From the NCBI GenBank assembly GCA_039096225.1, contig JBBPEB010000002.1, positions 496,001 through 560,000 on the forward strand: a stretch of DNA of 64,000 bases. The letters run 5' to 3'. Positions 4,205 to 63,990 of the stretch are shown in pieces. The stretch is from Blastocystis sp. Blastoise (taxonomy: Eukaryota; Protista; Bigyra: Opalinata). The position numbers were made by a program, and so were the translations under genes. The notes beneath the pieces are model-generated. The model did no database searches, was not told the DNA's origin, and was given only the letters and a program-made list of their open reading frames with translations. The stretch's first letter is position 1. Every line of letters begins with the position of its first letter.

Positions 4205-4206
4205 TT

Positions 4207-14121: not shown

Positions 14122-14182
14122 TTCTTAAAGAACATAAATATTTTTTTTTAATTCATCAAAATTATTTCAAAAAATAATAATA

Positions 14183-24014: not shown

Positions 24015-24270
24015 TCAGTCTTTTTTTCTCTTTTTTTCTTTTTCTTTATATATATATATATATTTCTTTTTCTTTTATTATATATATTTATATACTTATT
24101 TTTTTTTTTTTTGCCTAAGTTAATTTTTAAACTAATTTGTTTAGTTAAATATTTCAGACTAATACTTAAACTGCTGAATCTAAAATATTAAATAACTTAG
24201 AATATTTTTATTTTTTTTGACTTAGATTTTTTTTTAATTTTTATTACAATAATTTTCTATACTGTCTTCA

Positions 24271-24502
24271 TGCACCAATTTTTTCGTTCAACCAATCAAA
24301 TGATTCCGAACTGGCTCTTTTTTTGGTCAAAAATAAACTTTTGTATATATGGGGTTACGTACTTACTTATTCATTTTTTTTATAAAGTAGTAAGTAAGTA
24401 AATAGAATATATAAAAAGTTAGAAAAGTAAAAATGGATGACAGAGGGTGCGTCATCACTGATTTGACCAATCAAATTGTTTAAAATAGTTATTTATGTGA
24501 AA
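24271..24502 (-). repeat. Right terminal inverted repeat of element 1
   Basis: Reverse complement aligns block-wise with 1-230. Confidence 0.85.
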
Positions 24503-26611: not shown

Positions 26612-26804
26612 CAGTGACTTCCAAAAGGCCCTTTTTTTTTGCGGTGCCGCAATTGTCACAGAAAAATGTGACACTTTTGTTAATTTTTGACAGTGTAAAA
26701 ATATTTATTATTATATTAAGTCATATTAAGCCTGACTTAAAGCGACTTTATGTGACTGTCAAAAAAAGTCACCGCAAGTGTCACAAAAAGTCGGGAAGGC
26801 ACTG
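26612..26804 (+). mobile_element. hAT-type MITE, copy 2
   Basis: CAGTGACTTCC...GGGAAGGCACTG with exact 8-bp TSD GACATGAT (26604-26611, 26805-26812). Confidence 0.92.
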
Positions 26805-27709
26805 GACATGATATTTTAAAATTTGGAATGAATAGATACTATTATAGAATAAACTATTAATATTACTTCTATTTAGTCACACAATAAAATGGATGGTTTT
26901 ATTATATAATGCTAAATAAAATAAAATATTTATAATTATATAAAAAGAAATTATAAATTATTATTTGAAAATCTGCATTTATGTATAACTTGCTGTGATA
27001 TAAACAAAATTCGAAATATATATATATATAAATATATTATAAGTATTATTACTAAATCTCAAAGATTAATAAATATTTTAATTTTAACAAAGATTTCTTC
27101 CACCAATGATACAATAAATATTTGATAAATATATAATCATACAACATATAAATAAAAATAATGAAATGTAAAAGAAAAATTAAAAACTTTCTTAAATAAA
27201 GAATATATAAATATATAGAATTATATATAACATAATTATAGAGTCACTCTATCACTTAAATTGAAAATGATTAACATCACAATACAATCAGATAATTAGA
27301 AAATACTATTTAATTAAGAATAAAAATAATAAAATACAATTTTTTTTTAAGAAAGTTAAGATTAGTCTCTTCCCAAGTCTTTTGATGGAATTCATAACAA
27401 GTAATTATCACAAAAAATATATGATAACATATTTATTCATGTAAGTAGAATTGTATATTTTTTTTGAATAAGTTAGTTTAAGTTTGACTGAAATTGATAA
27501 TCAACTATTATTATGGAAACAGCCACAAAAATGAGTGAAGGCATGGTTTAAAATGTTTTAAGAAATATAATTTGTAAATTTGACTAATAATAATAATTAT
27601 TATTATAAAAAAAGAAAATATAATTATCATAAACACAAATCAATAAGAAAATAGAATAGAAGTATATAAAGATATGTTTAGTATAGATGATATTAACCAA
27701 AGGATATAA

Positions 27710-34077: not shown

Positions 34078-37000
34078 TTACAATACTCCATTAAATACAC
34101 AATTTTTAGTATGCCATTCATTACTATTTCTGATTAATTGACCTTGATTAATATTATCATTCTTTATAAACATTTTTATACCATGAAAAGAACGTACTCT
34201 ACTTAAAGCAACATATAATTGACCATGACTAAATACAGGTCTTTCTAAATAAATACCTACATTTTGAAATGTTTGACCTTGTGATTTATTAATAGTCATA
34301 GCAAAAGCTAATCTGACAGGAAATTGTTTTCTACTTAACTTACATGGTAAATCACTATCATCTACTATAAATTTAATTCTTGGAATCAATACTATATCTT
34401 GTCCTTCTAACATATTATCAGTTCTTACTAATAATTGACTTCTTATTACATTTGGTTTTGTATCTAATACTACTAATCTCGTTCCATTACATAATCCTCT
34501 CTTTATATCTAAATTTCTTAATAACATAATAACTGAACCTCTTTTCAATTCTAAATCATGAGGTGGACATCCTTGAGGAATTAAACTATTTAAATATTCT
34601 GTACTATAAGCATCTCTTTCATCTATATCTTCTACTTCTTCTGCTAATTCATCATGACTATAATAATGATGAGAACTTGATCTTATCATATTTTGAATTC
34701 TTTCATTAATTAAAAATGCTTGTTCATTTGTTGCACATAATATACAATTTGAAGCTAATTTCTGTCTATATATATCTGTATTTGAATCATTAATAAATTC
34801 ATGAAATATCTCTTCACCTATATTCTCATCACAAATACATTCTCTTGGAATATGTACTTTATCTTTTGATAATAATCTTAATTCATTATTACATCTATCA
34901 CCATTTCCTATCTTCAATAAGAATTCTTTAAATTCTATTTCATTTGCATTTGCTCTCATATTTTCTGTTAATTGAAATTGATTAAATTCATTCCAAATAT
35001 CTAAATATTTAATACATAAAGGAACTATATCAGCTTCTTTTCCATGAGCTACTACTGGTAAACATTGTCTAAAATCTCCACCTAATACTATTGTTTTACC
35101 TGCAAATGGAATATCTATCTCATCATTATATAAGAATCTTAATAATCGATCAACTACTTTTAAAGCATATTTAGAAGCCATAGGAGCTTCATCCCATATT
35201 ATTATTTTACATTTCTTAATTTGTTCTGCTCTTGGAGATCCTCTTGAAATAGAAGAAGAAGAAGATTCATTTAATTCAAAAGGTAATCCAAATTGTGAAT
35301 GAGATGTTTTTCCTCCACATAATAAAGTAGCTGCAATACCTGTCCATGCAACTGCTATCACATCATCTATATTATTTCTTATTGATTTAATTATTGTATT
35401 ATAAAGAAATGTTTTTCCAGTTCCTCCTGGTCCATCTATAAAAAACATATTATTTCTATGAGGTTCATTATTATTCACTGATTCCATTATTGATTCATAT
35501 ACTCTTCTTTGTCCTTCATTCAATAAACTTATATTTCTTTCGGCTATTCTATGATCTTCTTCAAAATTAATTCCTTCAGATTCATAATCTATCATATTAG
35601 TATTATTATCAAATTGTGGTAAATTAGTACTTTGATATCCTCCATTATGTTTATTTGTATCTATGACACTTCTTATATGATTTAATGCTCTAGGTATACA
35701 ATATTCTTCTATTATTCTATTCACTTCATTATCTTCTGAATCTAATACATATGCATCTTGTCTATCTATACTTATATATTCATTTATATATTGATGAAAG
35801 AAATCATCTATCATATCATTCCTATAAGTATTCCAAATAGATAATGGATCAGTAATAGGATAATAAAAACAAAGTAAACCAAATAATTGTCTTAATTGCC
35901 AAGGAGTAGCATCTATTACTTCATTTGCAAGAATATCATAATATTCTGTATCATCTACTAATAATCCTCTTGCTATACAGGATTCTCTATATGTATTATA
36001 TATTTGGCCTTCATAACATTTTAAATCATCAAAACTTAATGGACGACTTACATGTAATAAAAGTATTCTTAAACAAAATAAATTATCATTTGTAGGATCC
36101 ATATAAGGAAGTCTTCCTATTACTTTATTATTTCTTCTTCTATGATTCCATTTCTTTAATTTTGAATCATATGTATAATATTTAGGAAATTCTATATAAG
36201 TTAAAATAGATGGTTCATCCATTGTTCCTCTTGATTCTTCATTTATATATAAATCATTCATTTTAAAATATGCTGTTAACATTGTATCTTGATTCATTAT
36301 TCTATCTAAAGCTCTTTCTTCATCTCCTTCCACATAATATACAGTTCTATCATTCTCATCATGAATATCTAAAGTAATTACACTCACATTACAATATTTT
36401 ATTGGAAATCCATATATTCTCCACATAGCTTCAGGAGCTGATAAATATCTTCCTTTTAAATAAGATTTCATTTCATTTGGTATTTCTATTTCATTTCTAT
36501 TTGAATTATTTGGATTATTACTATTAGCATTATTATTACTATTATCTTCTCTTTCTATTTCTGCATTAATAGAATCATGTCCTTTAAAAGCATATTTAAA
36601 TATATATTTAGGACTTCTTACTGAAGAACATACTTCTACATTAATATGACAACCTATTCTAAATGATAAATATGGATTATATGGAACTACCCATCTATTA
36701 TCTAAAGTATTATTTACATTTGATTGTCTACCTATTACATATACTCTACCATTATCTCTTCTTCTATAATTTGGATATCCATCTTCATTTATTGTAGTTT
36801 CATTTCTATAATCTTTTGGAAATTTCTTTGAACAATATTGTTGACCATTTATTTCTTTCATACATTGAGATGTTCTTGTATGAGGACCATGCATATTCAT
36901 TGAAGTAATAATTTCATATAATCTTGGATTCTTTATAGGATCAGGAATTTCTGCACATATATAGGAATCTATATCTTCAAGAGTTCTTAATTTATATTCA

Positions 37001-39580
37001 TTCTCTAAAGTAATTAAAATATGTGCATGAGGCATTCCTCTCTTCTGACATTCTATAGAATAACATATACATTTTACTTCTCCAAATACTTTAAAATTTG
37101 TTATCAAATGAGTTAAGATTTTCAATTTTATATAAAATACTCTATCTACTATATCAGGTCTCATCCAAGGTTGTTGACCTTCTTCTAATGATTCTAAGAT
37201 TTCTGGTCAATTTGGATTGCAAGTCATGGTTATAAATAAATCTGGTTTACCATAAGCTCTTACAATAGCCATTGTTTCTAAATAGGAATTCTTCATATAT
37301 CGAGGACCACCTACAAAACTTGATGGAATAATAACTGCTTTTCCAATTCTACTTCTTATATATTCATCACTAAATCCATTTCGTATCATCTCATTCACTG
37401 TATCTCTAAATACAGAATATTTCTCTGATCTTAATTTTGTTTGATTATTTGCTATAAATAATAATCTTGAATATTCTATTTTTGTAGCTGCATCAACCAT
37501 AAATTGTAATAATAATTTTTCAAATAATAATAAATAATTCTTATGATTAGGATGTCTTGTATATAATAAATAAGAATAGAATTCTCTTAATGAAATAGTA
37601 GGTATAGTATAAAATTCATTTCCTAAAATATCTAATGGAAATCCTCTTTCTGATCTATTTCTAAAAATTGGAATAATTCTCATCGATTTTGAATCATCTC
37701 CATTACTATCATTATTCTCTGTATGATTACTATTTATTCTATAATTATTTCTATTATTTAATTCATTTTCTACTTCTTCTATTATTTCATTCTCATTATT
37801 ATTATTATTAGTTGAATTTGAAATATTTCTATTATTATTATTATTATTTTGACGATTTAAATGTAATTCAGAATTACGTATAATATTAGAAGTAGATTCT
37901 AAACTCCATAATGGTAATCCATAAGGAAACATTAATGGATATATTAATGGATCACAAAATGGATTATTATAACTAAGATTTGTCATTTGTTGTTCTGATA
38001 TATTTTCATTATTATTTTCATTTTCATTTTCATTATTATTTTCATTATTATCATCATTTCTTCTTCTTCTTCTTGGATAACACGAAAGATTAATATTTGG
38101 TAAACCTTCATCATTTTGTTTTGGTATAATCATAGCTATTTCATTTGTTGTAGTAGGAACATTAAATCTTCTTCTATCATCATAATTACTTATTTTAAAT
38201 TGTAATTTTAAATTTACTTGTGAATAAGTAGTATTATTTATTCTTCTTGATTCTGTTACTTGTTCATGTAATGTTTTAAAAGATTCATATATTTTATTAT
38301 TATTTCTTATCATAGAATCAATACTTAATAATAAATCAGAAGATAATTCTGAAAACATACTATTTCCATTTCGAATATGAAGAGCTTCTTCTTCATCATA
38401 AATATATATTTGATTAAAAGAAGGAGGAGAATTATCAGAAGGATATAAATCACTCATAGAATGATATACATTACCATGAACTCTATAAAAATATGGTCCT
38501 GGACCATTCATTCTTGTTACTACATTAGAACATGACATAGAAGCAAAAGCAAAAGCATTATTATATCTTCTTATCTCATTTCTAAATAATTTATTATTTG
38601 GTGTCTGACTCTTTAATTGATTTAATAATTCATTTGGAAGATTTATAGGTGATTCTACTTTCACTTTCCCATTATTACAACACATTGTATAATTTGAATT
38701 TCTTGTAATGATATAATCATGATCTCCTTCATAATACTCAAAATCTATTCTTGAATTATTAATTAAGTTAATATATTTTTTATATGTAGAATATTTTGTA
38801 ATCTTATAATTTGTTTTTTCTGCTTCAAAATGAAGAGCTTCACAATGAATACAAACATGATTCATTTTACCTATATTATAATATTCATATATATTATTTC
38901 TATGAATATCTCTTTCATTCTCTTCTATTATTTGTTCTCCATTTCCTATACATAATATAATAATAGTTCTATTATCATAAAGAATTATAATAATATAATG
39001 ATATAATATTAAACATACTTAATTTAATACATGCTTCACAGTTTTCAAATCTTATTACAATAGGAATATTGCCATTATTTTCTTCATTATTATTTTCATT
39101 TTGATTATCTATATCTATATCGTTATTATTTGTAGAGTTTATTGGTTCTATTTGCAAAATAGGATTATTAGTAGTATTAGAAAGAATAATAGGTGTGAAA
39201 TCACTATCTGTACTTGAATCATTATCTGAAGTAGAAGAATCAAAATTAATTCTTCTTCTATGATTATTTATTTTTGCTGATAATAAATTATTATTATTAG
39301 GATTTTGAATAGGAGATATTTGATAATAATTTAATATATCTAATATCGATGATCTTGGCAGAGGAGGAATAATAGAATTATTATTATTATTATGAGAAGA
39401 AGAAGAAGAATTAATAATTCTTGAATCAAGAGGAGATAATCTAGGAGGTGTAATAATTCTTCCGTTCTTCGAACTGCAGAAGGGGGTATGCAAACCCCGC
39501 ATAGAGTCTGCGCGACGCGCGCAGCCATAAGCGGGGAAGTCATCCCCCCTTTTTGTTCTCGACGGAAGAATTAATAACAT
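34078..39580 (-). pseudogene. Helitron Rep (HUH)/PIF1-like helicase with one nonsense codon and one intron
   Basis: FITMTCNPN[TGA]PEI, ECQKRGMPHAHIL, YIFKYAFKG, GPGGTGKT, IWDEAPM, GDFRQ, TINKSQGQT, LYVALSR; 73-nt intron 38946-39018 joins ORF 38975-39580 in frame. Confidence 0.92.
39456..39571. mobile_element. 116-bp GC-rich foldback element 2 (inside the Helitron)
   Basis: ATTCTTCCGT...ACGGAAGAAT with inner stems AAGGGGG/CCCCCTT, CCCCGC/GCGGGG, CTGCGCG/CGCGCAG; TAATA on both sides. Confidence 0.75.
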
Positions 39581-40175: not shown

Positions 40176-40223
40176 TTCGAGAACATTCTATAACATTCTC
40201 GAAACTTCTAGAACATTCGAGAA
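40176..40223. promoter_or_regulatory. Heat-shock-element array upstream of recombinase A
   Basis: TTCgaGAAcaTTCtaTAAcaTTCtcGAAacTTCtaGAAcaTTCgaGAA: alternating nGAAn units. Confidence 0.75.
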
Positions 40224-40299: not shown

Positions 40300-41247
40300 T
40301 TGAGAAAATCAATGAAAAATACAAATTATGACAAGTATCTTTTGGTTATACAGAATTCAAATTATTCTGATATTTGGAAAAAACGTTTAACCAATTATTT
40401 CAATTTATATATTTTCCCATTACCATTTAAAAAGTTCTCAGAATTCTTAAAGAATCCTTATTCATTCATGGATTATATGGTAAATGAACGTAAAATCAAA
40501 ATTAGTCCAATGAAATCGTTATGTGAATTGATATTATTTATTATACGTAATGTTTCTTCATTAAATAAAGAATGTATTTTAAATAAATGGTGTGAATTTT
40601 ATGTGATTATCAATTCAATGTATGAAAAATATCTGGATAATAAGAAACGTACTTTAATTCAAGATCTTATTAAAGATGGTATTACGACTCCATATTTACA
40701 TGAATATCACGATAAATTAGAAAATTATAATCCATTACGATTAATATTAGATTTTTACTCCTATCTTCCTCCTGCTCGTGCTGATTATGCTCAATTATTC
40801 ATTCTATCACCAGAAGATACTATTGATCCAGCTATTCATAAGAATTATATTGTTTATGATAAAGAGAAACATACTGGTTCTATTCTATTAAATGATTATA
40901 AAACTGCTGGTAAATACTCTACAATTCAATTAGATGCACCAAAAGAATTGATTGAAGATCTAGAATTACTCTTAAAAAGAAAACCAAATCGTAAATTTAT
41001 ATTTGAATCTTCTGTAAGAACTGGATTTACTACTAAAGCATTTGATTGGTTTGTGAATAAGCATTTAAAACAAATCCATCCAAAATTGACCATTAATGCA
41101 TTAAGAAAATTATATGCTACAACTACAACCAATACATTCCAAGATATAGAAAATTCTGCTTCTGCTTTATGTCATAATGATTATACACATATTAATTCTT
41201 ATGTATCTTTAGAAAATAATAATTTATTTAAAAAATTAATTGAATAA
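40300..41247 (+). CDS. Tyrosine recombinase A
   Basis: PPARADY, DYKTAGKY, INALR, LCH..THINSY; probable start ATG 40312. Confidence 0.87.
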   Translation: MRKSMKNTNYDKYLLVIQNSNYSDIWKKRLTNYFNLYIFPLPFKKFSEFLKNPYSFMDYMVNERKIKISPMKSLCELILFIIRNVSSLNKECILNKWCEFYVIINSMYEKYLDNKKRTLIQDLIKDGITTPYLHEYHDKLENYNPLRLILDFYSYLPPARADYAQLFILSPEDTIDPAIHKNYIVYDKEKHTGSILLNDYKTAGKYSTIQLDAPKELIEDLELLLKRKPNRKFIFESSVRTGFTTKAFDWFVNKHLKQIHPKLTINALRKLYATTTTNTFQDIENSASALCHNDYTHINSYVSLENNNLFKKLIE

Positions 41248-41320: not shown

Positions 41321-41722
41321 TTAATTAAAAGGTAAGAAAGATAAATTATTATTATTATTTTGATATTGATTTTGTTGTTGATTACTTTTCATAGTAGGCA
41401 TAAACATATTATTGGGTTGAATAAGATTTTTATCATCTTGATATTGATTCTCATTCTTCATATATTGTTTATCCAATAGCATTTCAAGACGTTGATGAAT
41501 CACAGGATCATCTATATAAAGTAGCATATTTCTACAATAACTTAGTTGTAAATCACTAAGATTCTTGTTGTTATTGTTATTTAAAAATTGTTCTAATAGA
41601 TTTGCTATTTCATTCTTTTTGGATTTAATTCCTTCTTCTTTTAGATTCTTCATCACACGACAAAAATAAGAATAACTAAGATATTTCTTGTTCATTATTA
41701 AAATTAACCAATGATTAAACAA
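41321..41722 (-). CDS. Conserved hypothetical viral protein
   Basis: Homolog of 3080-3565; start uncertain. Confidence 0.7.
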   Translation of the reverse strand: MFNHWLILIMNKKYLSYSYFCRVMKNLKEEGIKSKKNEIANLLEQFLNNNNNKNLSDLQLSYCRNMLLYIDDPVIHQRLEMLLDKQYMKNENQYQDDKNLIQPNNMFMPTMKSNQQQNQYQNNNNNLSFLPFN

Positions 41723-41790
41723 AACAAATTAATTATATAAAACACTAATATAATAAATTAAAGATTCTACAAATAGAGCCAGTTCAAAAT

Positions 41791-41813
41791 GAATGTTCTA
41801 GAATGTTCTAGAA
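41791..41813. promoter_or_regulatory. Heat-shock-element array upstream of ORF 41321-41722
   Basis: GAAtgTTCtaGAAtgTTCtaGAA. Confidence 0.7.
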
Positions 41814-41817
41814 TGTT

Positions 41818-42438
41818 TTAACAAGGCATAAGATTTCCATTAGAAAGTAAATAAAGTAAAGAATAATAAAAGCAACCATTTGCATTACTTGTAGTTTTTT
41901 GGTGTTGAATAGGATTATATTGAATATTATGATTTTGAATAAATGATTTTGAAAAAGTAGGTTCATTTCCTAATGATGAATAGTGTTCTATGTTTTTATT
42001 ACCATTATAAATAACAGCTTCAAAATGACCATTATAAGGATCACTAGGACTTCCATGAAAGATCATATTAAATTTAGTTTGATCTTGATCTATATTTTGT
42101 TCAAAATCATCATAACTATTATAATAATTATAAGATTGAGAATTCGTTTTATTTAATTGTTTCATAACATTTTCAGCACGATCACAAGCAACAGAAGAGG
42201 TAGGTTTATTTAAATAAGCATAATTATATAATTGAGATATTAAAGAATTTGGTATATTACAATATTGAGATAGAGTTTGTTTGAAATTATCAGGGGATCT
42301 AGGAGTAACATGACGAGTTTTATCAGATATAATAGGATTATCGCAATTCATTGAATTTTGAATTAATTTCTCATCTTTACTCTTTACCAGATCCCCTCCC
42401 CTGAGTTTTTTGATAACATATATTTCTTTTTTTTCCAA
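41818..42438 (-). CDS. Adenain/Ulp1-like cysteine protease (probably made as a -1 frameshift fusion)
   Basis: GHFEAV, YSSLG, NPIQHQ, NGCFYY; ORF starts at TTG and overlaps the upstream gene in the -1 frame. Confidence 0.8.
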   Translation of the reverse strand: MEKKEIYVIKKLRGGDLVKSKDEKLIQNSMNCDNPIISDKTRHVTPRSPDNFKQTLSQYCNIPNSLISQLYNYAYLNKPTSSVACDRAENVMKQLNKTNSQSYNYYNSYDDFEQNIDQDQTKFNMIFHGSPSDPYNGHFEAVIYNGNKNIEHYSSLGNEPTFSKSFIQNHNIQYNPIQHQKTTSNANGCFYYSLLYLLSNGNLMPC

Positions 42439-44111
42439 AACAATTCGTCACCTGCATTTAATGTTTCATTATTATCTCTTTTCTGTTTTATAATTTGTAA
42501 TTGTTTTAAATCAGCCTCTTGTATTTTACGTTTTTTTCGTGCCACTCCTGCAGGTATTATAAAATCTGTATAAAATGATACTAATGGATTCAAATCACCA
42601 CCTCTTTTCTTTTTAGCTTCTTTTCCTCTTCTCATTCGTTCTAAGAATTCTGCTTTACTTAATTTAACTCGACCACCATAACCTCTACGTTTAGCTCTTC
42701 TTGCAGCTATTCGTTTATCCCTTTCATCTTCTTTCCATTTTCTATCGACTTTCTCTTTATCATTTTGAGGGAAACCATAAATCTTATAATAATAACTTTG
42801 TTCATCACGAGACATGGGTTTATAAGGTTGAGGAGGTTGTTGAGTTTGTGGATGTCTTGGTGTATCATTTTGAGGTATATCAAATGTATCAACATTCAAT
42901 TCAGGTTCAATTTCTGGTTGTGGTTGAATGGGTGCTGCTGGAGGAGGTGGTTGACGAACAGGAAGATTCTTTCTAAGTTGTTGTTTCATACTGTGCAAAT
43001 CTCTTAATGGTTGCACTTCTTGATCTAATAATTCTGATTGTCGTTCAACTGTATCGTAACCATCATTAATTGTTCCCATTACTATACCATTACCTATTTG
43101 CTTTTTCATTTCATTTAATGCTTGTTGACGTTTTAATTTTTCCATTTCAAATTCCATATCATTTAATTCACTTGATTGTTGTGCCAAATGTGTATCATAA
43201 TAAGCTTTTCTACCTTTAGCAAAAGAATCCATACCTTTATCAACTACACCTAATAGAGCTGGTGCATAATCCATTAATCCGCTCCAGAATCCACCACCTC
43301 TTTTTACTCTTAATATACCATCACCACTTTGAGCTGAATCTAAATCTATATATTTTGGTATAATAGAGGGTCTTAACATTCTTCTTAATTTTGGATTATT
43401 AATCATTTTCTTATTTTTAATTGCATTCATAATTGCTGAAGCAACAGATATAGGAATCTTTCCACCACGTTTTATTTTATGTTCATAGAATCTTTTGAAT
43501 TCATCATCAAGATCATGATGACCATCACCAACATATTGAGCTAAAATAGCTAATGCATCACGAGCTTTTCTATTAGCTTTTTTATCTACAATAGCATCTC
43601 TTATATCTAATACATTTCGTTGATACATATCTTTTACTTTATTTTTAATTGCATCACCAATACCAGAACCTTGATTATTCTCTAATTTATTGATTTCTGA
43701 TTTATTTGGAATAATTCCTCTACCAGATTTACGTCTTGGTTTACATGGATTTAATACTTTATATTGACGATCTTCACCATCTATTTTATCTTCTTCTGGA
43801 CCAGCTGCTTTCATTATACCTTTACCTGCTGCTCTAGCACGAATTAAAGCACCATTTCCTTGTGGAACAGCATCTTTACCAAATGTTTTAGAACGATCTA
43901 CATAATCATCTTCTTTACCATCATGTATTTCTTTACTTTCTAAAGTAGACACAGGCATAGATGAATTTGGACCTATTTCATGAAATATTGGATTATATTG
44001 ATCCATTTTATGTAATGGTTGTGTATTATATCGCCTATATTCTTTTCCAGTTGAAATTAAATTCATACCAAAAGTACCAGGACTTGGCATTCCTAATATA
44101 CAACTTTGCAT
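42384..44111 (-). CDS. Gly/Lys/Arg-rich putative virion core precursor 1
   Basis: 575 aa; KRGG, RGGGF, GYGG, GSG motifs; ortholog of 4207-5325. Confidence 0.65.
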   Translation of the reverse strand: MQSCILGMPSPGTFGMNLISTGKEYRRYNTQPLHKMDQYNPIFHEIGPNSSMPVSTLESKEIHDGKEDDYVDRSKTFGKDAVPQGNGALIRARAAGKGIMKAAGPEEDKIDGEDRQYKVLNPCKPRRKSGRGIIPNKSEINKLENNQGSGIGDAIKNKVKDMYQRNVLDIRDAIVDKKANRKARDALAILAQYVGDGHHDLDDEFKRFYEHKIKRGGKIPISVASAIMNAIKNKKMINNPKLRRMLRPSIIPKYIDLDSAQSGDGILRVKRGGGFWSGLMDYAPALLGVVDKGMDSFAKGRKAYYDTHLAQQSSELNDMEFEMEKLKRQQALNEMKKQIGNGIVMGTINDGYDTVERQSELLDQEVQPLRDLHSMKQQLRKNLPVRQPPPPAAPIQPQPEIEPELNVDTFDIPQNDTPRHPQTQQPPQPYKPMSRDEQSYYYKIYGFPQNDKEKVDRKWKEDERDKRIAARRAKRRGYGGRVKLSKAEFLERMRRGKEAKKKRGGDLNPLVSFYTDFIIPAGVARKKRKIQEADLKQLQIIKQKRDNNETLNAGDELFWKKKKYMLSKNSGEGIW

Positions 44112-44857: not shown

Positions 44858-44915
44858 TTCGAGAAGGTTTGAGAAGGTTCTAGAAGGTTCTAGAAGGTTC
44901 GAGAAGGTTCTAGAA
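44858..44915. promoter_or_regulatory. Heat-shock-element array upstream of the SSB-like gene
   Basis: 10-bp period TTC(t/g)aGAAgg repeated about six times. Confidence 0.75.
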
Positions 44916-45906: not shown

Positions 45907-45924
45907 GAACCTTCTAGAACATTC
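45907..45924. promoter_or_regulatory. Heat-shock element next to CCAAT boxes
   Basis: GAAccTTCtaGAAcaTTC; CCAAT at ~45754, ~45824, ~45897. Confidence 0.65.
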
Positions 45925-46769: not shown

Positions 46770-46906
46770 TTCTAGAAGGTTCTAGAAGGTTCTAGAAGGT
46801 TCTAGAACATTTAAAATATAAAGTAATATTTACTATTATAGAATGTTCTAGAAGGTTCTAGAAGGTTCTTGAATGTTCTAGAAGCTTCCAAAACTGACTT
46901 CTAGAA
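46770..46906. promoter_or_regulatory. Two heat-shock-element arrays upstream of the primase-helicase
   Basis: TTCtaGAA x4 at 10-bp period (46770-46807) and GAAtgTTCtaGAAggTTCtaGAAggTTCttGAAtgTTCtaGAAgcTTC (46841-46888). Confidence 0.78.
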
Positions 46907-46974: not shown

Positions 46975-49900
46975 ATGGAAAATTCACAAATTCATTTTGT
47001 TTATACTTTTGGTTCCTTTAATCATGATAATTCAAAAGATAATCATAGTGAAATTATTATACCAAATCCATTACCATTTTATAAAAGTCTATTTACTAAT
47101 TATCAAAATCCAAAAGAATTATTACATTATATTGATTGTACTCCTTGTAATACATCAACTAATTATAGAAGATTATGGTTTGATTTAGATTATCACCAAA
47201 TATCAAATGATTTTTCTTTTCTAACAGATTCTTTTATTCATGAATTTATAGAAGAAATGTGTAATCATTGTATTCATTATTATAATCAAGAATTTATTTC
47301 GCTTCTGTATACAAAGAAAGAAGTGAATAAGAAGACAGTTCATAATGAAATACATTATTCATGGGGAATTCATATATATACAAATTGGTTTGTAAATGGT
47401 GATTATTTATTTTTCTTATATAATAGTATGATTCTGAATACAAAATTGGTTGATTTATGTAAAATGAATAATTTAGATATAAAAGAATTCATTGATTATA
47501 ATGTTATTGGTAAACCAAGAAAGAATAATGGTTGTATGTTTCTTGGTTGTAGTAAAGATAATTCTCCATCTACTTATAAATTATATGAAGAATATACCAA
47601 TAAATCATGGAAGAAAATAGAAGGCGAAATCAATGAACATTATTATTTCAAAACATTATTGAATTATAAGAATGAAGATGATATTATAAGTGATATTATT
47701 AATCCTATTATCTTTTATAAATTAAAACAATATTCACGTTATAAACGTTATTATGAAAGATTAAATAATTGTTCACGTACTATATTATGTTCTATACAAG
47801 ATATTAAAGATATTCCTATGTTGATTTCTACAGATACTATATTGGATACTACAGCATCTAAAGAAGCTTTATTAGAACGATATTTATTATTGATTGGTTC
47901 TATTGAAGATATGAATTATTTTGAATCTCATAATACTTGGTATAAATTATGTTGTGCAGCAAAACAGATTTGTAATACAACAAGAGGATTAGAATTATTT
48001 AAAAATTATTCATTACGTTATGGCCATGATCGAAGTGATGATGTAATTGAATCTACATGGAATCATATACAAGTTGATCCTACTCATTTATCGAATAATT
48101 ATATTTTGAAGATATTAATGGAGAATAAATTATTTAATAAAGATGATGATAATGATTTCATATTTATGTCTATTTTAGAATGTATTCAATCCTTTAATCT
48201 TGTAGATTCACAAACATTAGTTATGTTATTTCAATTATTAGAATTTAATGAAATTGTATCTATTATATTAGATAAAGATAATTTTATCTTATATACATTT
48301 GATGAATATAATATCTTAAGACGTTGTAAGAATAATTATGATATTAATTTCTTTGAAACCAAAATAACTACATTTATGAAATCGATTGTAGAGAAATTCA
48401 AATTATCAAGATTATATTCCAAAGAGAATGAACAACATCAAAAAATAGTTGATAAAATAATGTCTGCTTCTGTTACTAATGAATATCATTATAAAGAATG
48501 GTTGAATCGTTATTTGAAGACTTATGGTAAATCTTATAAAGAATATTTAGATACGTATATGGTTCATAAAGAACGTGTTATCTATACACAACTTGGTTAT
48601 TTATATCCAAAAGAATCAACAGAAGAAGATCCTAGACAATATTATATCCAACCATATCATAAAGAAGATATGGTATTTGAAGATTTATTAATTGATACTG
48701 AATTTAATGTAAGTTGGAATATTAATAATGAACAGAAAGATATTATCCAATTATTTGAACAACATTATGCAAGATATTGTGAATTCGATAAGAAATATGA
48801 AAGTATTATGTTACGTATCCTAACCACTGCTTTCTATGTCAATACTCAGAAAACTGTTTCTTATATATTATATGGTAGTACAGGTAGTAATGGTAAAACA
48901 ATAACAACTGATTTAATTTCTCGTATTGTAGGTAGTAATCAATGTATTATAGTAAATCCAGATAATTTAGAAGAAACATCTATAGCTCCTAAGATTGTAG
49001 ATATGTCTAATAAAACAATGTATTATATGAATGAATTAATAGAAGAAGATGTTACTGGTAGAAAGAAAACATTCAATCCATTCTCTTCTAAAGTCTTTAA
49101 AGAAATAGCAGAAAAGAAAGAAGGTGCTAGTGCTCGTAAATTATTCAGTAATATATTTACAAAAGTTCATTTCACGGGTACTTTATTTATGACAAGTAAT
49201 ATCCAACCTACTGCTGTGAATGCTGGTCCTATTGAAAGAAGAGTCTGTTTCTTACCATCATGTTGTCGTTATTTCCCTCCTGGTAATGCTAATTTATATG
49301 AAGATTATGTAGATCATAATTTACCTAAACGTAAACAGACAGTAGAAAAGAGATTGAAACCAAATCATTATGAAATGGATTATACTCTATCCGATAAATT
49401 CTATCAGAATCGTTCAATTATCTTTAGTTATCTAGTAAGTAATTATTTCTATTCTAGTATGCAATTAGATATGCATGAATTAGATAATGAATATCATATA
49501 AGTGAATGTAAGAAACGATTCTTTGATCGTAGTACAGAAGGATATGATTTGAAATCTTTTGTTGATAACCATATTACTATAGATCCTTATTATTTGAATG
49601 TAGTTACTATTGAAGATATTTTTAATAGTTATAAGAAAGTGAATAATAATAATCAATTTACGATTAAGAAGGATTTAGATAAATTTACAAATGCTTTATT
49701 TGGTTGTTTAAGTAGTAAAGATACATTCAATTCTATAGATATTGTGAATATTCATAGAAAACATACTTCAAATTTCTATAAGGGAGGGAATGCTATTGGT
49801 ATTTGTGGTTTAATGATTGATAATACTTATAATGAATGTGTAGATACAGATTTATTCTGTTTATCCAATTGTTTATCTAAGAAAGAAGAAATTGTTTATA

Positions 49901-49977
49901 GTGAAGATCAATATCATAATACGTCATCAACAAAACGAATTTTAATAGATAATACTTTATATGCTATACCAAATTAA
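46975..49977 (+). CDS. D5-like primase-helicase (AEP + PriCT-like + SF3 helicase)
   Basis: LWFDLD and GIHIY primase motifs, HNTWYKL..STWN linker, YGSTGSNGKT, YMNE, FMTSN, IERR. Confidence 0.9.
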   Translation: MENSQIHFVYTFGSFNHDNSKDNHSEIIIPNPLPFYKSLFTNYQNPKELLHYIDCTPCNTSTNYRRLWFDLDYHQISNDFSFLTDSFIHEFIEEMCNHCIHYYNQEFISLLYTKKEVNKKTVHNEIHYSWGIHIYTNWFVNGDYLFFLYNSMILNTKLVDLCKMNNLDIKEFIDYNVIGKPRKNNGCMFLGCSKDNSPSTYKLYEEYTNKSWKKIEGEINEHYYFKTLLNYKNEDDIISDIINPIIFYKLKQYSRYKRYYERLNNCSRTILCSIQDIKDIPMLISTDTILDTTASKEALLERYLLLIGSIEDMNYFESHNTWYKLCCAAKQICNTTRGLELFKNYSLRYGHDRSDDVIESTWNHIQVDPTHLSNNYILKILMENKLFNKDDDNDFIFMSILECIQSFNLVDSQTLVMLFQLLEFNEIVSIILDKDNFILYTFDEYNILRRCKNNYDINFFETKITTFMKSIVEKFKLSRLYSKENEQHQKIVDKIMSASVTNEYHYKEWLNRYLKTYGKSYKEYLDTYMVHKERVIYTQLGYLYPKESTEEDPRQYYIQPYHKEDMVFEDLLIDTEFNVSWNINNEQKDIIQLFEQHYARYCEFDKKYESIMLRILTTAFYVNTQKTVSYILYGSTGSNGKTITTDLISRIVGSNQCIIVNPDNLEETSIAPKIVDMSNKTMYYMNELIEEDVTGRKKTFNPFSSKVFKEIAEKKEGASARKLFSNIFTKVHFTGTLFMTSNIQPTAVNAGPIERRVCFLPSCCRYFPPGNANLYEDYVDHNLPKRKQTVEKRLKPNHYEMDYTLSDKFYQNRSIIFSYLVSNYFYSSMQLDMHELDNEYHISECKKRFFDRSTEGYDLKSFVDNHITIDPYYLNVVTIEDIFNSYKKVNNNNQFTIKKDLDKFTNALFGCLSSKDTFNSIDIVNIHRKHTSNFYKGGNAIGICGLMIDNTYNECVDTDLFCLSNCLSKKEEIVYSEDQYHNTSSTKRILIDNTLYAIPN

Positions 49978-50022: not shown

Positions 50023-51819
50023 TTAATAAAATTTAAATTGAATTCCATGAAAATGTTTTTTAGGGACTTTGACTTTAAAGAATGCATTACCTTTATGTTT
50101 TTTCAATAAACCATGACCCCGATGAATAGGGTCTAAAGGAGGCATAGTAGAAAGACTACGTAATGCATAAGTATCTGAATTATTCATAACTATAGGTGTA
50201 GAGTTTTCATCTTGGGTATTCTGTTGCATAAGAGATGCTTGAGTATTCGTTAATTCTGAATCTGTTGTATTATTATGTAAATGATCAGGTAATAATTGTT
50301 TATTACGTATAAAACGATTATAACGATCTCTAGAATTCTCTGGGACTTCTTCAGATTCTAATGAACATCCTACAGGTAATTCATTTTCTAAATCTGTTTT
50401 ATCTGGATAATGATGCTTTAATAGATCTTTATAATATCTTAATGTAATCATTATAGTATCATTATCTGATGAATATTGTTCTAATGTAGATAATATCGAT
50501 TCTGATTTCATATTGAAATTCTCTTTACCAAATACATCTTCATAGTCTTCTTCATATTGTTCTATACGATCATTAAATCGTTTACATAAAAATAATAATT
50601 TATTCAATTGATTAATTTCTCTTGTATAAGTAATATTATTCATATCAATATGAAATGTTCTTGTTTTATTATCTAAATCTTGCAATTTAGTTGAATGAGA
50701 AGATAAATAAGGAGATATATAATTTTCCATATGTGTTGATTGACTATGTAACATCTTCATAATCGAATTTTCAAAGAGTTCTACACCTTTAGATTCGTGT
50801 TCTGAATCATTATGTTGGAATTGTGTTTCTCTTGATAATCTATAATAATATTGAGCAAATAAATGTCTTATAATATCACAACCATTAATTAAAGAATTAT
50901 TCTGTTGTGTTTTATAAATCCATCCTAAATGAGGTTTTATATATTCATCACCAAATTTCAAATCACGTACTTTACCACCATTCTCAGTAACAAATAAATA
51001 ATGTCTTGGAAATAAACGTAAGGATCTAGCTAAGACATTTAGATATTCTTCTGATAAATACTGATAAGTAGGATATTCATTCTTACCAATTTCAAATCGA
51101 TTCTTTGTATCATTCACATGAATAGTCAAAGTATTTAAATCAATATAATTGGTTGTTCTTCTTAACGATAAAGGAATTTGTTGACCACGAGTATAGATTA
51201 CACAATCATTATAATCATTACGAGCACATAATGTATCATAAGTTAAAACTAATAAATAACTATTCACATAATATAAATCATTAGGATTCTCTAAATAATT
51301 CTTTTTGGTGATATTAATGATTTCTCCCCAATCAGCTTCACAATTAATAATTTTCTGAGTGATTTCATAATGTCTTGAATAAGTAGCATCAATTTGTAAA
51401 GAACCCCATAAATGTTCCCATTTCTTTATATTTTGTGGAGTAAATGCTTTATAATTAATGATATCTTCATCATCTGTACAAATAGATATATTCTTCATTA
51501 TATAAGTAATCATTTGCATATAATTAGCTACTGTAGTATTGGATAATCCACCTTGTTGTCCAGGAGCTTCTGTTTGTGTATGTTGCATAACATTTTGAAA
51601 TTGAAATGGATCTGTTAAGACTTCTACACAAAAGAATGGTTCTTCCATATCATCTATTTGAATTCGTTCTTCATTACGAAATTTCTTACATATTGTTTTG
51701 ATCCATTTCTTCCAATTTATACTTGTTGATAATTGTATTTTCTTCCAATGTAATAATTGATCTATACAATTTGTAAAGAATTCTTCACAATCTTTATCTG
51801 AATAACCTGTTGATTGCAT
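50023..51819 (-). CDS. Tyrosine recombinase B
   Basis: CARNDY, NDTKN, DIIRH, MLHSQSTHMENY. Confidence 0.8.
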   Translation of the reverse strand: MQSTGYSDKDCEEFFTNCIDQLLHWKKIQLSTSINWKKWIKTICKKFRNEERIQIDDMEEPFFCVEVLTDPFQFQNVMQHTQTEAPGQQGGLSNTTVANYMQMITYIMKNISICTDDEDIINYKAFTPQNIKKWEHLWGSLQIDATYSRHYEITQKIINCEADWGEIINITKKNYLENPNDLYYVNSYLLVLTYDTLCARNDYNDCVIYTRGQQIPLSLRRTTNYIDLNTLTIHVNDTKNRFEIGKNEYPTYQYLSEEYLNVLARSLRLFPRHYLFVTENGGKVRDLKFGDEYIKPHLGWIYKTQQNNSLINGCDIIRHLFAQYYYRLSRETQFQHNDSEHESKGVELFENSIMKMLHSQSTHMENYISPYLSSHSTKLQDLDNKTRTFHIDMNNITYTREINQLNKLLFLCKRFNDRIEQYEEDYEDVFGKENFNMKSESILSTLEQYSSDNDTIMITLRYYKDLLKHHYPDKTDLENELPVGCSLESEEVPENSRDRYNRFIRNKQLLPDHLHNNTTDSELTNTQASLMQQNTQDENSTPIVMNNSDTYALRSLSTMPPLDPIHRGHGLLKKHKGNAFFKVKVPKKHFHGIQFKFY

Positions 51820-52377: not shown

Positions 52378-54861
52378 TTATATATAAGAGATAGTTAATA
52401 AAACAACACAAGGATAATCACAAGTAATAAAGAACATATTATCATGAGGTAATAACTTTAATAATTTACGATTACAATAATAAACATTCTTATTGATCTT
52501 ATTTGATATACCTTCATATTTAATACCATTAGAATAGTAATAAGGTAGATTTGTAGTATCAATAACATGAATATTATTCTCATATTCATTAGTAAAACAT
52601 CTTAATGAAATAGGATATAAGTAATCAGTGGATTGACCATACACTGATATAATTTGTATATTCGTTAAGTATTGATATCCATAGACATTGGTTTTCTTCA
52701 ATTCATAAATTAAATTCTTACTCGTACTAAAATCACAATATACTTCATCATAAGCTTTGAAACGTATATCACTACCATTCGGTTCACATATATTACAAAT
52801 GATATTTCCTTTGAATAATTCATCAAATCTTAAATCTATATGATGATCAATGGTGATTGGAGAATTTATATTACTATATGTAACATATTTATCAGATAAA
52901 GGAAAACTAAATGTAGGATAATAAGATCCATTTATATATCCAGTACATAATTTAGATGCATTTGTTTGGATTGTATCTGTATCATTCTGAATAATAATAT
53001 CTTTTAAGATTTTATTCTGGATATTCAATGTAGGATATTCAGCATAGAATTGTGTGTCTGCTGTTAAACAATTCAAACATAATTTCTTAATGGTTTCACT
53101 AGGTTGAATCGTATCGACTGTATCTGAGAATTCTAAGAATCCTCTTAAAATACAATTATTATTGAAATTCACATATTGTTTATTTTTATCAGTATATCGT
53201 ATAATAATATCTTGAATAGTATTTAAATAAGGAGACACATTAATATTCATAATATCATGAAATTCATTATTGCCTTTATAATTATTCACATTAAATGAAT
53301 ATAAAGAATTCTGACTATTATCTACTATATTCGATTGAGCTATTAACATTCCTTTTGGACGACTACTATCAATATTATGAACACCATAATTAACAATTTC
53401 ATCATGACCTAATTTATTATAACCTAAGATTTCACCTAATTCTTGAGCTTGAGAGAAATCTATATGATGACTATCAGTATAACACTTATAATTACCATCT
53501 AAATCTAATGTATTCAAATCAACAGGTGTATCTGGTAATAATTGTTTACCATAAGATACATGCCAAGCAAAACATCCTTGTTCATCATAAACCAGATCAG
53601 GTCGTATATTATGTAGAGCACCACGATACTTAAATAATGAATGTTCTATATCTGTAGCTGTAAATGTGAATGAAGTAGAATCATTGCCTTTACATGATAA
53701 ATATATTATATATCCATCCTTATTGTCCATAGTTTGAGCATCTTTGGATATATTTAAATAATCAGTATAAATTGTATTATTGATTGAACTTTCTAATAAA
53801 TCATAGAATTCGTCTTCAATATAGTCACCTGGAGGAACAGTGAATGTAGTTTCATGAACACCATCATAACCACTCAATTGTCGAACAATCATTGTATTAT
53901 ATCCATCTTCAACAGTAATTAATGTTTTGATATTAAATATATCATCATGTTTAACTGGATTCTTAATTCTTTGTAAAACAATTTCTGGTTTATTTCCAGT
54001 GTGTATTAGTGTTCCATTACCGTCAAATAAACCAGTAAATAAACTATTTTCCATTTTCAGAATCATATTTATATTTGGAGAAGTTACATTTGGAAAATAA
54101 AAATCATGTTCTTCATTAATTACACATTGAATTGTTCCATCACTACTTTGTGTAGGAATATCATGAATGAACTTACTAAATACACCATTATTTGCATATT
54201 CTTTTAATGAATAAGTCCCTGTTGTTCTAACAGGAATAGGAAAAGAAGTTGTTTTGGGTCGATATAATATTATATTATCATCATCATATTTCATCATCAG
54301 TCGATTTTTGTTATCTAACCATACAGAAGATACCAAACAAACAGCGATCCACCAAAATTCTATATCTGTATAAGTTCCTTTTGGGAAATTAAAACCACGT
54401 CTTGTTTTAGCAATATAAAATTCACAATAAAAATCATCTCTATTAATTGTAATTGTTGGAATTTTCTTAATTTTAACAGTAGAATCGATATCAGGAGATT
54501 CACTTATTAATGGCCTATCACATATATCAAAATGACATAGTTCTAATAATTGTGGAATTGAATAATTTTTCTGATCTAAAGTGATTGTATATACGTTATT
54601 ATTTCCATTAACACGAGTATTTATATATTTGAATATTTGTGTTTTTGTGAATGTATCAAATAGAGGCACACTTTCACTACCAATTAAATTAAGATCAATA
54701 TAAGAAATGATATTTTTAGTGATATCAATAGAATTCGATAAATGTATATTGAATTGATTATCAATACAACGAACATCAATAGGAACTACATGTGTTTTAA
54801 TACGAGTATCCTTCTCTTCTAATGAAGTCTGTTCTTCTTGATTATCTTCATCAAGTTCCAT
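52378..54861 (-). CDS. Long penton/minor-capsid-like protein with repeated insertion domains
   Basis: FPKGTY, VPPGDY, LGEILGY, QSNIVDN, IIIRYTD..VNF resemble Polinton penton motifs; ends conserved with element 1, middle divergent. Confidence 0.55.
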   Translation of the reverse strand: MELDEDNQEEQTSLEEKDTRIKTHVVPIDVRCIDNQFNIHLSNSIDITKNIISYIDLNLIGSESVPLFDTFTKTQIFKYINTRVNGNNNVYTITLDQKNYSIPQLLELCHFDICDRPLISESPDIDSTVKIKKIPTITINRDDFYCEFYIAKTRRGFNFPKGTYTDIEFWWIAVCLVSSVWLDNKNRLMMKYDDDNIILYRPKTTSFPIPVRTTGTYSLKEYANNGVFSKFIHDIPTQSSDGTIQCVINEEHDFYFPNVTSPNINMILKMENSLFTGLFDGNGTLIHTGNKPEIVLQRIKNPVKHDDIFNIKTLITVEDGYNTMIVRQLSGYDGVHETTFTVPPGDYIEDEFYDLLESSINNTIYTDYLNISKDAQTMDNKDGYIIYLSCKGNDSTSFTFTATDIEHSLFKYRGALHNIRPDLVYDEQGCFAWHVSYGKQLLPDTPVDLNTLDLDGNYKCYTDSHHIDFSQAQELGEILGYNKLGHDEIVNYGVHNIDSSRPKGMLIAQSNIVDNSQNSLYSFNVNNYKGNNEFHDIMNINVSPYLNTIQDIIIRYTDKNKQYVNFNNNCILRGFLEFSDTVDTIQPSETIKKLCLNCLTADTQFYAEYPTLNIQNKILKDIIIQNDTDTIQTNASKLCTGYINGSYYPTFSFPLSDKYVTYSNINSPITIDHHIDLRFDELFKGNIICNICEPNGSDIRFKAYDEVYCDFSTSKNLIYELKKTNVYGYQYLTNIQIISVYGQSTDYLYPISLRCFTNEYENNIHVIDTTNLPYYYSNGIKYEGISNKINKNVYYCNRKLLKLLPHDNMFFITCDYPCVVLLTISYI

Positions 54862-54943: not shown

Positions 54944-56437
54944 ATGAGAATCTTAAGAATTAAAGATAATATTCCTATTCAAAGCAATACTGATATTCTA
55001 TCTAGTCCTTATATCTTTCAATATCATTGGACTAATGTGGATAATACTTATATCAATTTCAATCAATCATATTTGGATCTTACTGTCAAGGCAACTGTCA
55101 CAGATAAAGCTGGACCAGTTTCTGTTTATTTAGATGAAACAGGTACTTCTGCTAGTTTCACCTATGATCAATTATGTCAATATTTCTTGGATCAATTAGT
55201 TCAGAAAGCTAATATTTATTCTATTATTGATACTACTGATGTTGAAATGGTTTATACATTACCTGATGGATCTGATCGTGCTTTAAAATATGAAGAAAAC
55301 TGTACACATGCTTCACGTGGTCGTAAAATGATATTATTAAAAGATATTAGTAAAAATGATTTAGAAAAATCTATGTATGGTGAAGATTTATCTGCAGATA
55401 CTTATGAATTGAATTCTATTCGTTATATACGTGCACATCCAGATGAATCTATTCATATTGCTATTCCTTTATATCTTATTAGTGGTTTAGGTGTTGATGG
55501 AGATTCTTTAATATTAACTAAACATTTCAATATGTTATTTAGAACTAGTACTATTGAATCATTAATTGATAATAAAATGAGTATTTATTTCAAGAATGGT
55601 ACTGCTACCAAAACTACCGAATGGTTACATTTAGATGATGAAAATTGGTTTAGTACATTTAAGATTGAATCAGCTACTATGAATTTAATGACTTATAAAG
55701 ATATTCAGTTCCAATCGAATGAATTATATAAAACTATACCTACATGTATTCAAGTTGATTATCAAAATACAAGATTAACTACTAATCATTTCAATATCAA
55801 TAGAGCTTTACCATTTATACCTGAATATATATTATTTTGGTTTACAAATGGTTATAGTTCAACAACTATTAGTAATATAGCTAGTCCAAATGTATGGCCA
55901 ACATATCAAAGTTGTTTGATTGGTGATGTTCAAATGTTCCCTCAAACTGAATTCCCTACTCAAATGTATTATCATAATCTTACTACAAAAGGTCATGTCT
56001 TCAATAATGCAGAAACTACTAGTTTATCTTGTCCTAATAAGAATTTATATTGTTTATGGGCTGATAATTCAAATCCTGAAACTATTCTTAAATATGATGA
56101 ATGGATTAAACATCCTATTTATATTATTCCAACAAAATCATTAATGAATATCCAATCAGATAGTGGTATTGAATTGAATTTCGATTGTAATGTTGATGTT
56201 CATGATGTTAAATATGAACATATTGATTCATCCACTGTTCCTGATGGACAAACGTGTCAATGGAAAAGTTACGTTGATCCAACAGATAAAAAGACAAAAT
56301 ATCACTGGGAAGCTGATACTGCCTCTTATAAGGTAGCTTCTCATGCTGGTATTTATAAACATACTACTACTGATCTAAGTGATAGTTCTCCTTATACCTT
56401 ACATATGATTGCTGTACGTAGTGTGCGTGATATTTAA
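54944..56437 (+). CDS. Putative major capsid protein 1
   Basis: 497 aa; ortholog of 12595 (HASRGRKMI, FPQTEFPT, EWIKHPIY, RS.RDI). Confidence 0.65.
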   Translation: MRILRIKDNIPIQSNTDILSSPYIFQYHWTNVDNTYINFNQSYLDLTVKATVTDKAGPVSVYLDETGTSASFTYDQLCQYFLDQLVQKANIYSIIDTTDVEMVYTLPDGSDRALKYEENCTHASRGRKMILLKDISKNDLEKSMYGEDLSADTYELNSIRYIRAHPDESIHIAIPLYLISGLGVDGDSLILTKHFNMLFRTSTIESLIDNKMSIYFKNGTATKTTEWLHLDDENWFSTFKIESATMNLMTYKDIQFQSNELYKTIPTCIQVDYQNTRLTTNHFNINRALPFIPEYILFWFTNGYSSTTISNIASPNVWPTYQSCLIGDVQMFPQTEFPTQMYYHNLTTKGHVFNNAETTSLSCPNKNLYCLWADNSNPETILKYDEWIKHPIYIIPTKSLMNIQSDSGIELNFDCNVDVHDVKYEHIDSSTVPDGQTCQWKSYVDPTDKKTKYHWEADTASYKVASHAGIYKHTTTDLSDSSPYTLHMIAVRSVRDI

Positions 56438-56614
56438 ATTTAATATTTCTTACTTACTATTCTTAACGTTAACTTGTTTAATTAATTCTATTCTATTCTA
56501 TAATACAATCATTTGTTTTGTTATAAAAATTAAAATTAATTAATAATTATAAAATATTATTATTATTTATTTTTATTTTGTTAAAAAAAATATATATAAA
56601 CAATAATTATTAAC

Positions 56615-63962: not shown

Positions 63963-63990
63963 TTCTAGAATGTTCTAGAATGTTCTCGAA
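63963..63990. promoter_or_regulatory. Heat-shock-element array
   Basis: TTCtaGAAtgTTCtaGAAtgTTCtcGAA. Confidence 0.72.

Follow-up and report, generated by a model that had tools for sequence, protein, structure and literature searches.

Candidate -1 frameshift signal with a covarying RNA stem between the core-like and protease ORFs of Polinton-like endogenous viruses in Blastocystis

Programmed slippage of ribosomes into the -1 frame (-1 PRF) is characteristic of RNA viruses, retroelements, and tailed phages. The retroviral protease is an aspartyl enzyme, as opposed to the clan CE cysteine protease predicted at the locus described here. In retroviruses, frameshifting between gag and pro sets the ratio of enzyme to structural protein, as outlined in the available text of two sources (PMC7075266, PMC5009743). 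According to the same texts, the spacer between the heptamer and the downstream structure is usually 5-8 nt (PMC7075266), and A_AAA_AAC is one of the shiftiest heptamers for mammalian ribosomes (PMC5009743). For adintoviruses, KnotInFrame suggested hypothetical -1 frameshifts in Penton ORFs and potential Hexon-Adenain fusions (available text of PMC11071296). This hypothetical remark was the only mention of a -1 frameshift in Polinton-like viruses found in the literature searched, where supplements and large surveys of endogenous viruses may contain these elements or junctions like them. The word "frameshift" is absent from the main text of five other sources (PMC11161782, 10.64898/2026.06.19.733378, 10.1101/2022.07.28.501842, 10.64898/2026.07.28.741278, and 10.1101/2024.03.23.586382), and in the available text of PMC8502044 it is used in the context of decay only. 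Furthermore, no description of many-copy Polinton-like viruses of Blastocystis was found in the literature searched, and the available text of PMC10690189, on tortoise Blastocystis isolates, does not contain the word "polinton".

Two Polinton-like endogenous viruses in one Blastocystis contig

The window, which is the whole 64-kb stretch of DNA that was analysed, has a G+C content of 25%; tortoise Blastocystis isolates are given at 21-23% G+C in the available text of PMC10690189. The window holds two collinear elements, one at ~1-24,500 and the other starting at ~40,200 and continuing beyond the window end, with a Helitron and a DDE fragment between them. Element 1 (1-24501) is present whole at ~24.5 kb, inside the 15-40 kb range of Polinton-like virus units, and is partly decayed; diverged terminal inverted repeats flank it (1-230 and 24270-24501, 74%). 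The right end of element 2 lies outside the window. Orthologous proteins of the two elements are mostly ~28-60% identical. The Helitron encodes a Rep-PIF1 helicase (34078-39018) with one in-frame stop at 37207-37209.

Each element carries tandem major-capsid-like paralogues (54944-57838 in element 2 and 12595-15493 in element 1), which are 26-27% identical by BLAST and are full length across copies. The element 2 pair is on the plus strand and consists of 54944-56437 and its paralogue 56615-57838, for which a structure was modelled. The capsid model (pLDDT 58) matched MELD, adintovirus, virophage, and NCLDV capsids in Foldseek at E-values of 4e-14 to 1e-9, and reached a Z score of 10.3 to the double jelly-roll capsid chains of mavirus and PBCV-1. 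Element 2 also encodes a packaging-type P-loop ATPase (58688-59725, plus strand; phrog_2666, E 1.3e-10), minor capsid protein candidates (52378-54861 and 57936-58616), and a primase-helicase (46975-49977, plus strand; phrog_1156, E 6.3e-09), whose element 1 orthologue matched DUF5906 below the cut-off. A tyrosine-recombinase-like gene (40312-41247, plus strand) has a paralogue at 50023-51819. The R, K, H, and Y residues of the tyrosine recombinase motif are conserved in four such proteins, and 40312-41247 and 50023-51819 are putative tyrosine recombinases by this motif; the recombinase-like genes matched nothing in Pfam or PHROG. In a Pfam scan of 38 window proteins, no match to protein-primed PolB or to the retroviral-type (rve) integrase was found. 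Both elements are Polinton-like endogenous viruses and not strict Polintons (Mavericks). NCBI records contain 21 core genes of the element 2 type, with near-identical proteins present in up to 21 copies.

Decay of element 1 is evident in several genes. The ATPase (16003-17019) has two in-frame stops, the helicase is without its N-terminal 560 residues, and the counterpart (9627-12525) of an 827-aa gene of element 2 is broken up into three frames; a short repeat, which recurs at 26649-26812, has been inserted in it near 10984-11135. One of the breaks in this element sits at an A-run.

Arrays of TTCTAGAA with a 10-bp period were identified at 40176-40223, 41791-41813, 44873-44915, 45907-45919, 46770-46888, and 63963-63990, one of them directly after the element 2 protease stop. 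Three-unit matches in the window were located almost entirely in or beside element 2, in intergenic gaps (35 of 36), with a single match in element 1. The arrays match what we take to be the heat-shock element pattern nGAAnnTTCn, and element 2 may be switched on by the host heat-shock factor.

The junction between the core-like and protease ORFs

On the minus strand of both elements, a core-like ORF is followed by a protease ORF in the -1 frame. The core-like ORF of element 2 (42384-44111) encodes a basic protein of 575 aa with 10 GxG[ILVA]/[RK]GG motifs, and that of element 1 (4207-5325) encodes 372 aa with nine such Gly motifs; the density of this motif is highest in the core-like ORFs among 34 element proteins. 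Pfam and PHROG searches gave no family match for the core-like ORF, and the Atlas gave no lead for its protein (best 0.76). The Gly motifs resemble what we take to be cleavage sites of adenain-type and ASFV proteases, and because of this resemblance the 0-frame ORF is labelled a core-protein precursor, which it probably encodes judging by composition and motifs. All 21 core ORFs of the element 2 type stop at the same codon and have the same last ten residues, while the region just upstream varies.

A second protein with Gly motifs (62184-63674 in element 2 and 18196-19287 in element 1) has a weak N-terminal likeness to the core-like ORF and is possibly a paralogous core protein with no protease behind it. 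In element 1 only, a gene for a Dam-like D12 adenine methyltransferase (5360-6160; Pfam E 1e-33) is located immediately upstream of the core-like ORF, and in element 2 this position is taken by an unrelated ORF.

The -1 ORF extends from stop to stop over 41818-42447 in element 2 and 3635-4246 in element 1, and encodes a predicted adenain-like clan CE cysteine protease. In element 2 the residues are His126, Gln168, and Cys177, numbered from 42402, and there is an internal Met at 42351; in the element 1 ORF, the first Met comes 80 codons after the start of the region that it has in common with element 2. At the curated cut-off neither protease matched any Pfam family, PF00770 included, and the link to Peptidase C5 is indirect: a profile search over 1.84 billion representatives returned seven matches, of which P0108 (E 2e-4) and P0109 (E 6e-4) match Peptidase C5. 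The His, Gln, and Cys are invariant between this protease family and P0108 and P0109. Clan CE enzymes have a His-Asp/Glu-Cys triad and an oxyanion Gln; the position of the usual catalytic Asp is a Ser in this family, so protease activity is not certain. Atlas neighbours of the protease at 0.94 have PF00770 in 13-16% of members, at a recognition value just below the benchmark of the tool. In the structural comparison (model pLDDT 60), the top 21 matches were all clan CE proteases or their relatives, the best at Z 5.5 with an rmsd of 4.3 over 121 aligned residues, and matches to solved clan CE proteases cover mostly model residues 70-194. When the protease model was searched against the PDB with Foldseek, no match had an E-value of 0.001 or lower, the top matches again being clan CE.

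The 0-frame ORF of element 2 (44111-42384) contains the codons TCA AAA AAC near its 3' end, which places an A_AAA_AAC heptamer at 42411-42405 in the 0 frame, where a sequence-only reading of this DNA had located it. Its TAA stop (42386-42384) is 18 nt beyond the heptamer, directly after the 5' arm of the stem described below. In element 1 the same heptamer is at 4231-4225 on the minus strand, also in the 0 frame, and the TAA stop (4209-4207), 15 nt past the heptamer, is overlapped by the 5' arm. From the heptamer the -1 frame is open for 197 codons in element 2 and 198 codons in element 1, and the two -1 ORFs are 50% identical. The -1-frame peptides read without gaps between the elements, as had been claimed, and the two junction regions align gap-free at the nucleotide level. 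The coding sequence of both elements (36,396 nt) contains 79 in-frame heptamers, and the only two that are A_AAA_AAC are exactly the two junctions. The Asn codon at both slip sites is AAC, a codon used for 80 of 1,177 Asn residues, and the heptamer includes a run of A6 in element 2 or A7 in element 1.

A second heptamer that had been pointed out a few codons upstream, A_AAA_AAG, does exist in element 2 (42432-42426, minus strand), but it was rejected as the main slip site and is probably incidental. It is 28 nt from the stem, its best nearby helix has an energy of -2.3 kcal/mol, and of the 21 element-2-type copies only 12 retain WKKKK, the peptide that it requires, with nine having other residues there.

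Numbering from +1 as the first base after the heptamer, the element 2 stem pairs the 5' arm AGGGGATCTGG (42397-42387; +8 to +18), which is coding in both frames, with the 3' arm CTAGATCCCCT (42302-42292; +103 to +113), which lies within the protease frame. The result is a helix of 11 bp with one G-U, enclosing 84 nt and beginning after a 7-nt spacer, just as originally described. In element 1 the arms are at 4218-4208 (+7 to +17) and 4121-4111 (+104 to +114), forming 11 Watson-Crick pairs that enclose 86 nt after a 6-nt spacer. Both helices share one register, in which position i pairs with 121-i, and each is the longest in its 150-nt region. The proposal that the sequence had changed with pairing and spacing kept therefore holds for pairing and register; the spacer differs by one nucleotide.

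Among the 10 pairs shared by the two elements, four are invariant, five are changed on both sides, one is changed on one side (A-U to G-U), and none is broken. This compensatory pattern was matched in 8 of 500 shuffles, and slid registers gave 20-55% pairing. When arms are swapped between the elements, seven of 10 pairs survive, partly through G-U wobble, and three are broken either way. Synonymous resampling of the 3' side retained all 11 pairs in 571 and 1,089 of 20,000 trials. Stem covariation between the two junctions is real, where n is two DNA junctions with a common ancestor and the helix itself was chosen on the same two sequences. It had been attributed to independent junctions; the covariation stands (five double changes and one single), and the independence does not, because with orthologues ~28-60% identical these are homologous and represent one ancestral junction in two lineages. 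The covariation rests on two DNA sequences because no related locus was confirmed in viral, metagenome, and GTDB contigs or in phage records.

Length alone does not set these helices apart, as a helix of at least 11 bp starting 4-12 nt downstream is found at 298 of 10,632 coding background positions. The isolated-helix energies at the junctions are -16.2 and -19.5 kcal/mol, and -16.2 is reached at one of 3,556 background positions; at the 69 other in-frame heptamers that were scored (10 near ORF ends were left out) no helix was stronger than -10.2 kcal/mol. Folding z-scores of the 120-nt junction regions are -3.4 and -4.5, with none of 200 shuffles equally stable. In four contexts of up to 900 nt, pair probabilities were at least 0.97 for the central pairs and 0.4-1.0 for the outer pairs. 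Conservation is limited to the closing helix, and inner helices differ in register between the elements. No pseudoknot common to both elements was found; a candidate in element 1 (+22 to +27 with +134 to +139, -9.5 kcal/mol) was rejected, having no same-register counterpart in element 2. Rfam returned a single chance-level match, MIR5225 (E 0.15), far under its cut-off.

Twenty-one relatives of the protease from Logan/ENA, in two subfamilies, are all called as separate proteases. Eight of the called starts align with the Leu codon at +15, 10 fall on a Met 13 codons later, and three are further in, so that none of the 21 is called upstream of the two homologous codons. The contigs that carry these relatives (P0001-P0021) are up to 24 kb long, which is about the size of element 1, and may represent either complete elements or free viral genomes. 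From +15 on, the -1-frame peptide is conserved without indels in five subfamilies, two of which have no internal Met; in element 1 and the P0023 subfamily, Leu replaces it.

In a third NCBI subfamily, the core gene is joined to the protease by three different predicted introns over four records. This subfamily is available as protein only, and from the peptide together with the bases implied by the gene models, assuming GT-AG, register 121 is the longest of 19 registers, with 11 unbroken possible pairs at +8 to +18 (the next has 10), and a 0-frame TAG is implied at +16 to +18, as for the stop of element 1. The same test on P0001, P0002, and P0008 was uninformative.

In one further relative, P0106, residues 1-42 resemble the C-terminal part of the core ORF (E 1e-4 within the window), and the protease (62-247) follows in the same frame. 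At the homologous codons P0106 reads Asn-Lys-Gln instead of the Lys-Lys or Phe-Lys that a heptamer would encode, and so it has no canonical heptamer there; it also has a forced mismatch inside the stem register. If P0106 is a natural in-frame gene, then the fusion is a real product and the signal lapses when it is unneeded; it may instead be a spliced model or the carrier of an indel. Its DNA was not found in scans of viral and GTDB contigs.

Probable frameshifting and other possible routes to the protease

Three features of eukaryotic -1 PRF sites are seen at this locus. A 0-frame X_XXY_YYZ heptamer is present at both junctions, a stable structure is predicted at spacers of 6 and 7 nt, within the range of 5-8 nt, and a long conserved -1 ORF is accessible from the slip site in both elements. 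This ORF has no start of its own in element 1 and the P0023 subfamily, and in element 2 and P0001/P0002 a Met is found 18 codons in. The best reading is that -1 PRF makes a minor core-protease fusion, which we consider probable, and with it the conserved frameshift signal that the sequence-only reading had placed ahead of the protease.

We infer that one mRNA spans both ORFs and that A_AAA_AAC together with the 11-bp long-range stem 6-7 nt further on would cause a minority of ribosomes to slip back one base, the stem stalling the ribosome while its P site holds the Lys codon and its A site the Asn codon. Slipped ribosomes would extend the presumed core precursor by the predicted protease, and the majority would stop 15-18 nt later. 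The expected major product is 575 aa in element 2 and 372 aa in element 1, and the expected fusion is 764 and 563 aa, respectively. By analogy with retroviral gag-pro, the fusion would fix a low ratio of protease to core, and by analogy with gag-pro and adenovirus maturation, the core protein would carry the fused protease into the particle. There, the protease could cleave the precursor at its Gly motifs, and a Gly-rich stretch just past the slip site may be where it releases itself.

The layout of presumed 3'-end signals bears on the single mRNA. The first TGTTTTGTT downstream of the core ORF start is at 41718-41726 on the minus strand, 92 nt past the protease stop. This sequence is found 18-92 nt after the stop in 15 of 18 element 2 ORFs, with two more having one mismatch and convergent gene ends included, and in sense coding sequence (40,071 nt) it never occurs. 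After the element 2 core stop it is missing. In element 1 the exact sequence follows only four of 20 ORFs and is uninformative there. The layout fits one mRNA over core and protease, but also a nested short transcript. TGTTTTGTT differs from the Blastocystis downstream element TGTTTGTT by one extra T. In tortoise Blastocystis isolates, TGTTTGTT is reported as not enriched in the available text of PMC10690189. No sequencing run with matching sequence is on record as RNA, and run X1 covers parts of element 2 other than the junction.

A short transcript, leaky scanning, or reinitiation could each allow the protease to be translated alone from the internal Met at 42351, with the stem serving another role. 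Element 2 and the P0001/P0002 families have this Met, 10 of the 21 relatives are called from it, and the clan CE matches being mostly to residues 70-194, the N-terminal part of the protease may be dispensable. In P0001/P0002 a called start overlaps an inferred TGA, so that stop and start would overlap should that start codon be ATG. At the position of the Met, however, Leu is found in element 1 and the P0023 subfamily, and the peptide upstream of the Met is conserved. Met 42351 also has a T at -3, where 26 of 30 element starts have an A, and separate initiation leaves both the heptamer and the in-frame relative P0106 unexplained. We consider this route unlikely.

Splicing is a very unlikely explanation of how the core ORF is joined to the protease in frame, even if some NCBI gene models depict it. 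P0022, P0025, and P0026 are joined by an 89-nt GT-AG intron (+13 to +101) that roughly fills the stem loop, and P0106 could be a spliced product. Introns of variable length are described for tortoise-clade Blastocystis in the available text of PMC10690189. Yet the possible stop-free GT-AG joins, 57 in element 1 and 13 in element 2, include none at matching offsets, all 21 element-2-type models are unspliced at the stop, and the four third-subfamily records use three joins. The would-be intron is stop-free in the -1 frame only, where 11 of 27 residues are identical. A contig from run X1 (RNA by guess, depth 2) is unspliced across the element 2 acceptor, with 30 nt on the intron side, which is weak evidence in the same direction. 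Matching 89-nt introns in both elements were ruled out, as the element 2 join creates a TGA.

Still less probable is that a single true in-frame ORF has been broken by a homopolymer assembly error or by decay. The break falls in an A-run, as does one of the other breaks in element 1, P0106 is in frame, and no run X1 contig bridges the junction. Tortoise-clade Blastocystis assemblies in the available text of PMC10690189 are Nanopore-based and Illumina-polished, and the window may come from such an assembly. On the window alone decay would be conceivable, given the broken ATPase and the split long gene of element 1, and the assertion that the junctions are hard to explain by decay or assembly error draws its strength from elsewhere: in the 21 copies of the element 2 type, and likewise in the short-read relatives, the split falls at one and the same place, which argues against both. 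Element 2 ORFs contain 20 homopolymers of at least six nucleotides, and yet helicase, capsid, and ATPase copies are mostly full length (13/15, 15/15, 9/9, and 10/11). The 21 Logan/ENA relatives are called as separate proteases without exception, 18 of them starting at the two homologous codons, and longer, joined forms are limited to three NCBI models among 7,995 candidates (a weak count by the tool's own note). An assembly error would also not yield a covarying stem. Least probable of all is that RNA polymerase slips on the A6 or A7 run inside the heptamer, so that some transcripts gain one A and encode the same fusion. A-runs of at least six occur 54 times inside open frames of these elements, and the geometry, with a stem 6-7 nt downstream, is that of a ribosomal signal.

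Comparison with described systems

The feature is real, the mechanism is known, and the setting is new. If -1 PRF does operate here, the junction would be, within the literature searched, the first in a eukaryotic double jelly-roll DNA virus for which a -1 frameshift has support from covariation, and would show how a Polinton-like virus doses and packages its maturation protease. It would also explain why gene callers mis-model or miss these proteases, and would suggest that Polintons, Polinton-like viruses, and virophages may hide further proteases behind slippery sites and merit a new scan. The frameshift cassette is ~130 nt long and comes with natural compensatory variants, which makes the proposal directly testable.

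In gene content, the elements resemble Polinton-like viruses, above all the protease-bearing Gosseviruses and VC35, which have an MCP, an A32-like ATPase, helicase-type replication, a tyrosine recombinase, and a cysteine protease, and which are likewise integrated in many copies in a protist (available text of 10.64898/2026.06.19.733378). This likeness is by description, and the Blastocystis elements differ in having two MCP paralogues, two recombinase-like genes, and a putatively frameshifted protease. The protease is like adenain/Peptidase C5 and other members of clan CE (ASFV pS273R, SENP, and poxvirus I7L) in its invariant His-Gln-Cys and its clan CE structural matches, and differs from them in that Pfam gives no direct match, Ser takes the place of the Asp, and the ORF is without its own start codon in two of the five subfamilies.

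The adintovirus proposal is similar in that a -1 frameshift would fuse a virion protein to adenain in the same broad virus group (PMC11071296, available text). The partner here is a core-like precursor, with the capsid genes located elsewhere, whereas the adintovirus partner is the hexon or penton and no covariation is given in that text. With the retroviral gag-pro junctions of MMTV, SRV-1, and HTLV-1/2, the locus shares a structural ORF followed by a -1 protease, an X_XXY_YYZ heptamer, a spacer of 5-8 nt, and a downstream structure (available text of PMC7075266 and PMC5009743). It differs in belonging to a dsDNA Polinton-like virus and in the structure itself, an 11-bp helix closing 84-86 nt and not a compact hairpin or H-type pseudoknot. 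We lean slightly towards the view that Polinton-like viruses of gut protists independently reached the gag-pro strategy, with a covarying stem and a protease tethered to the core precursor, and that some relatives fuse the two in frame.
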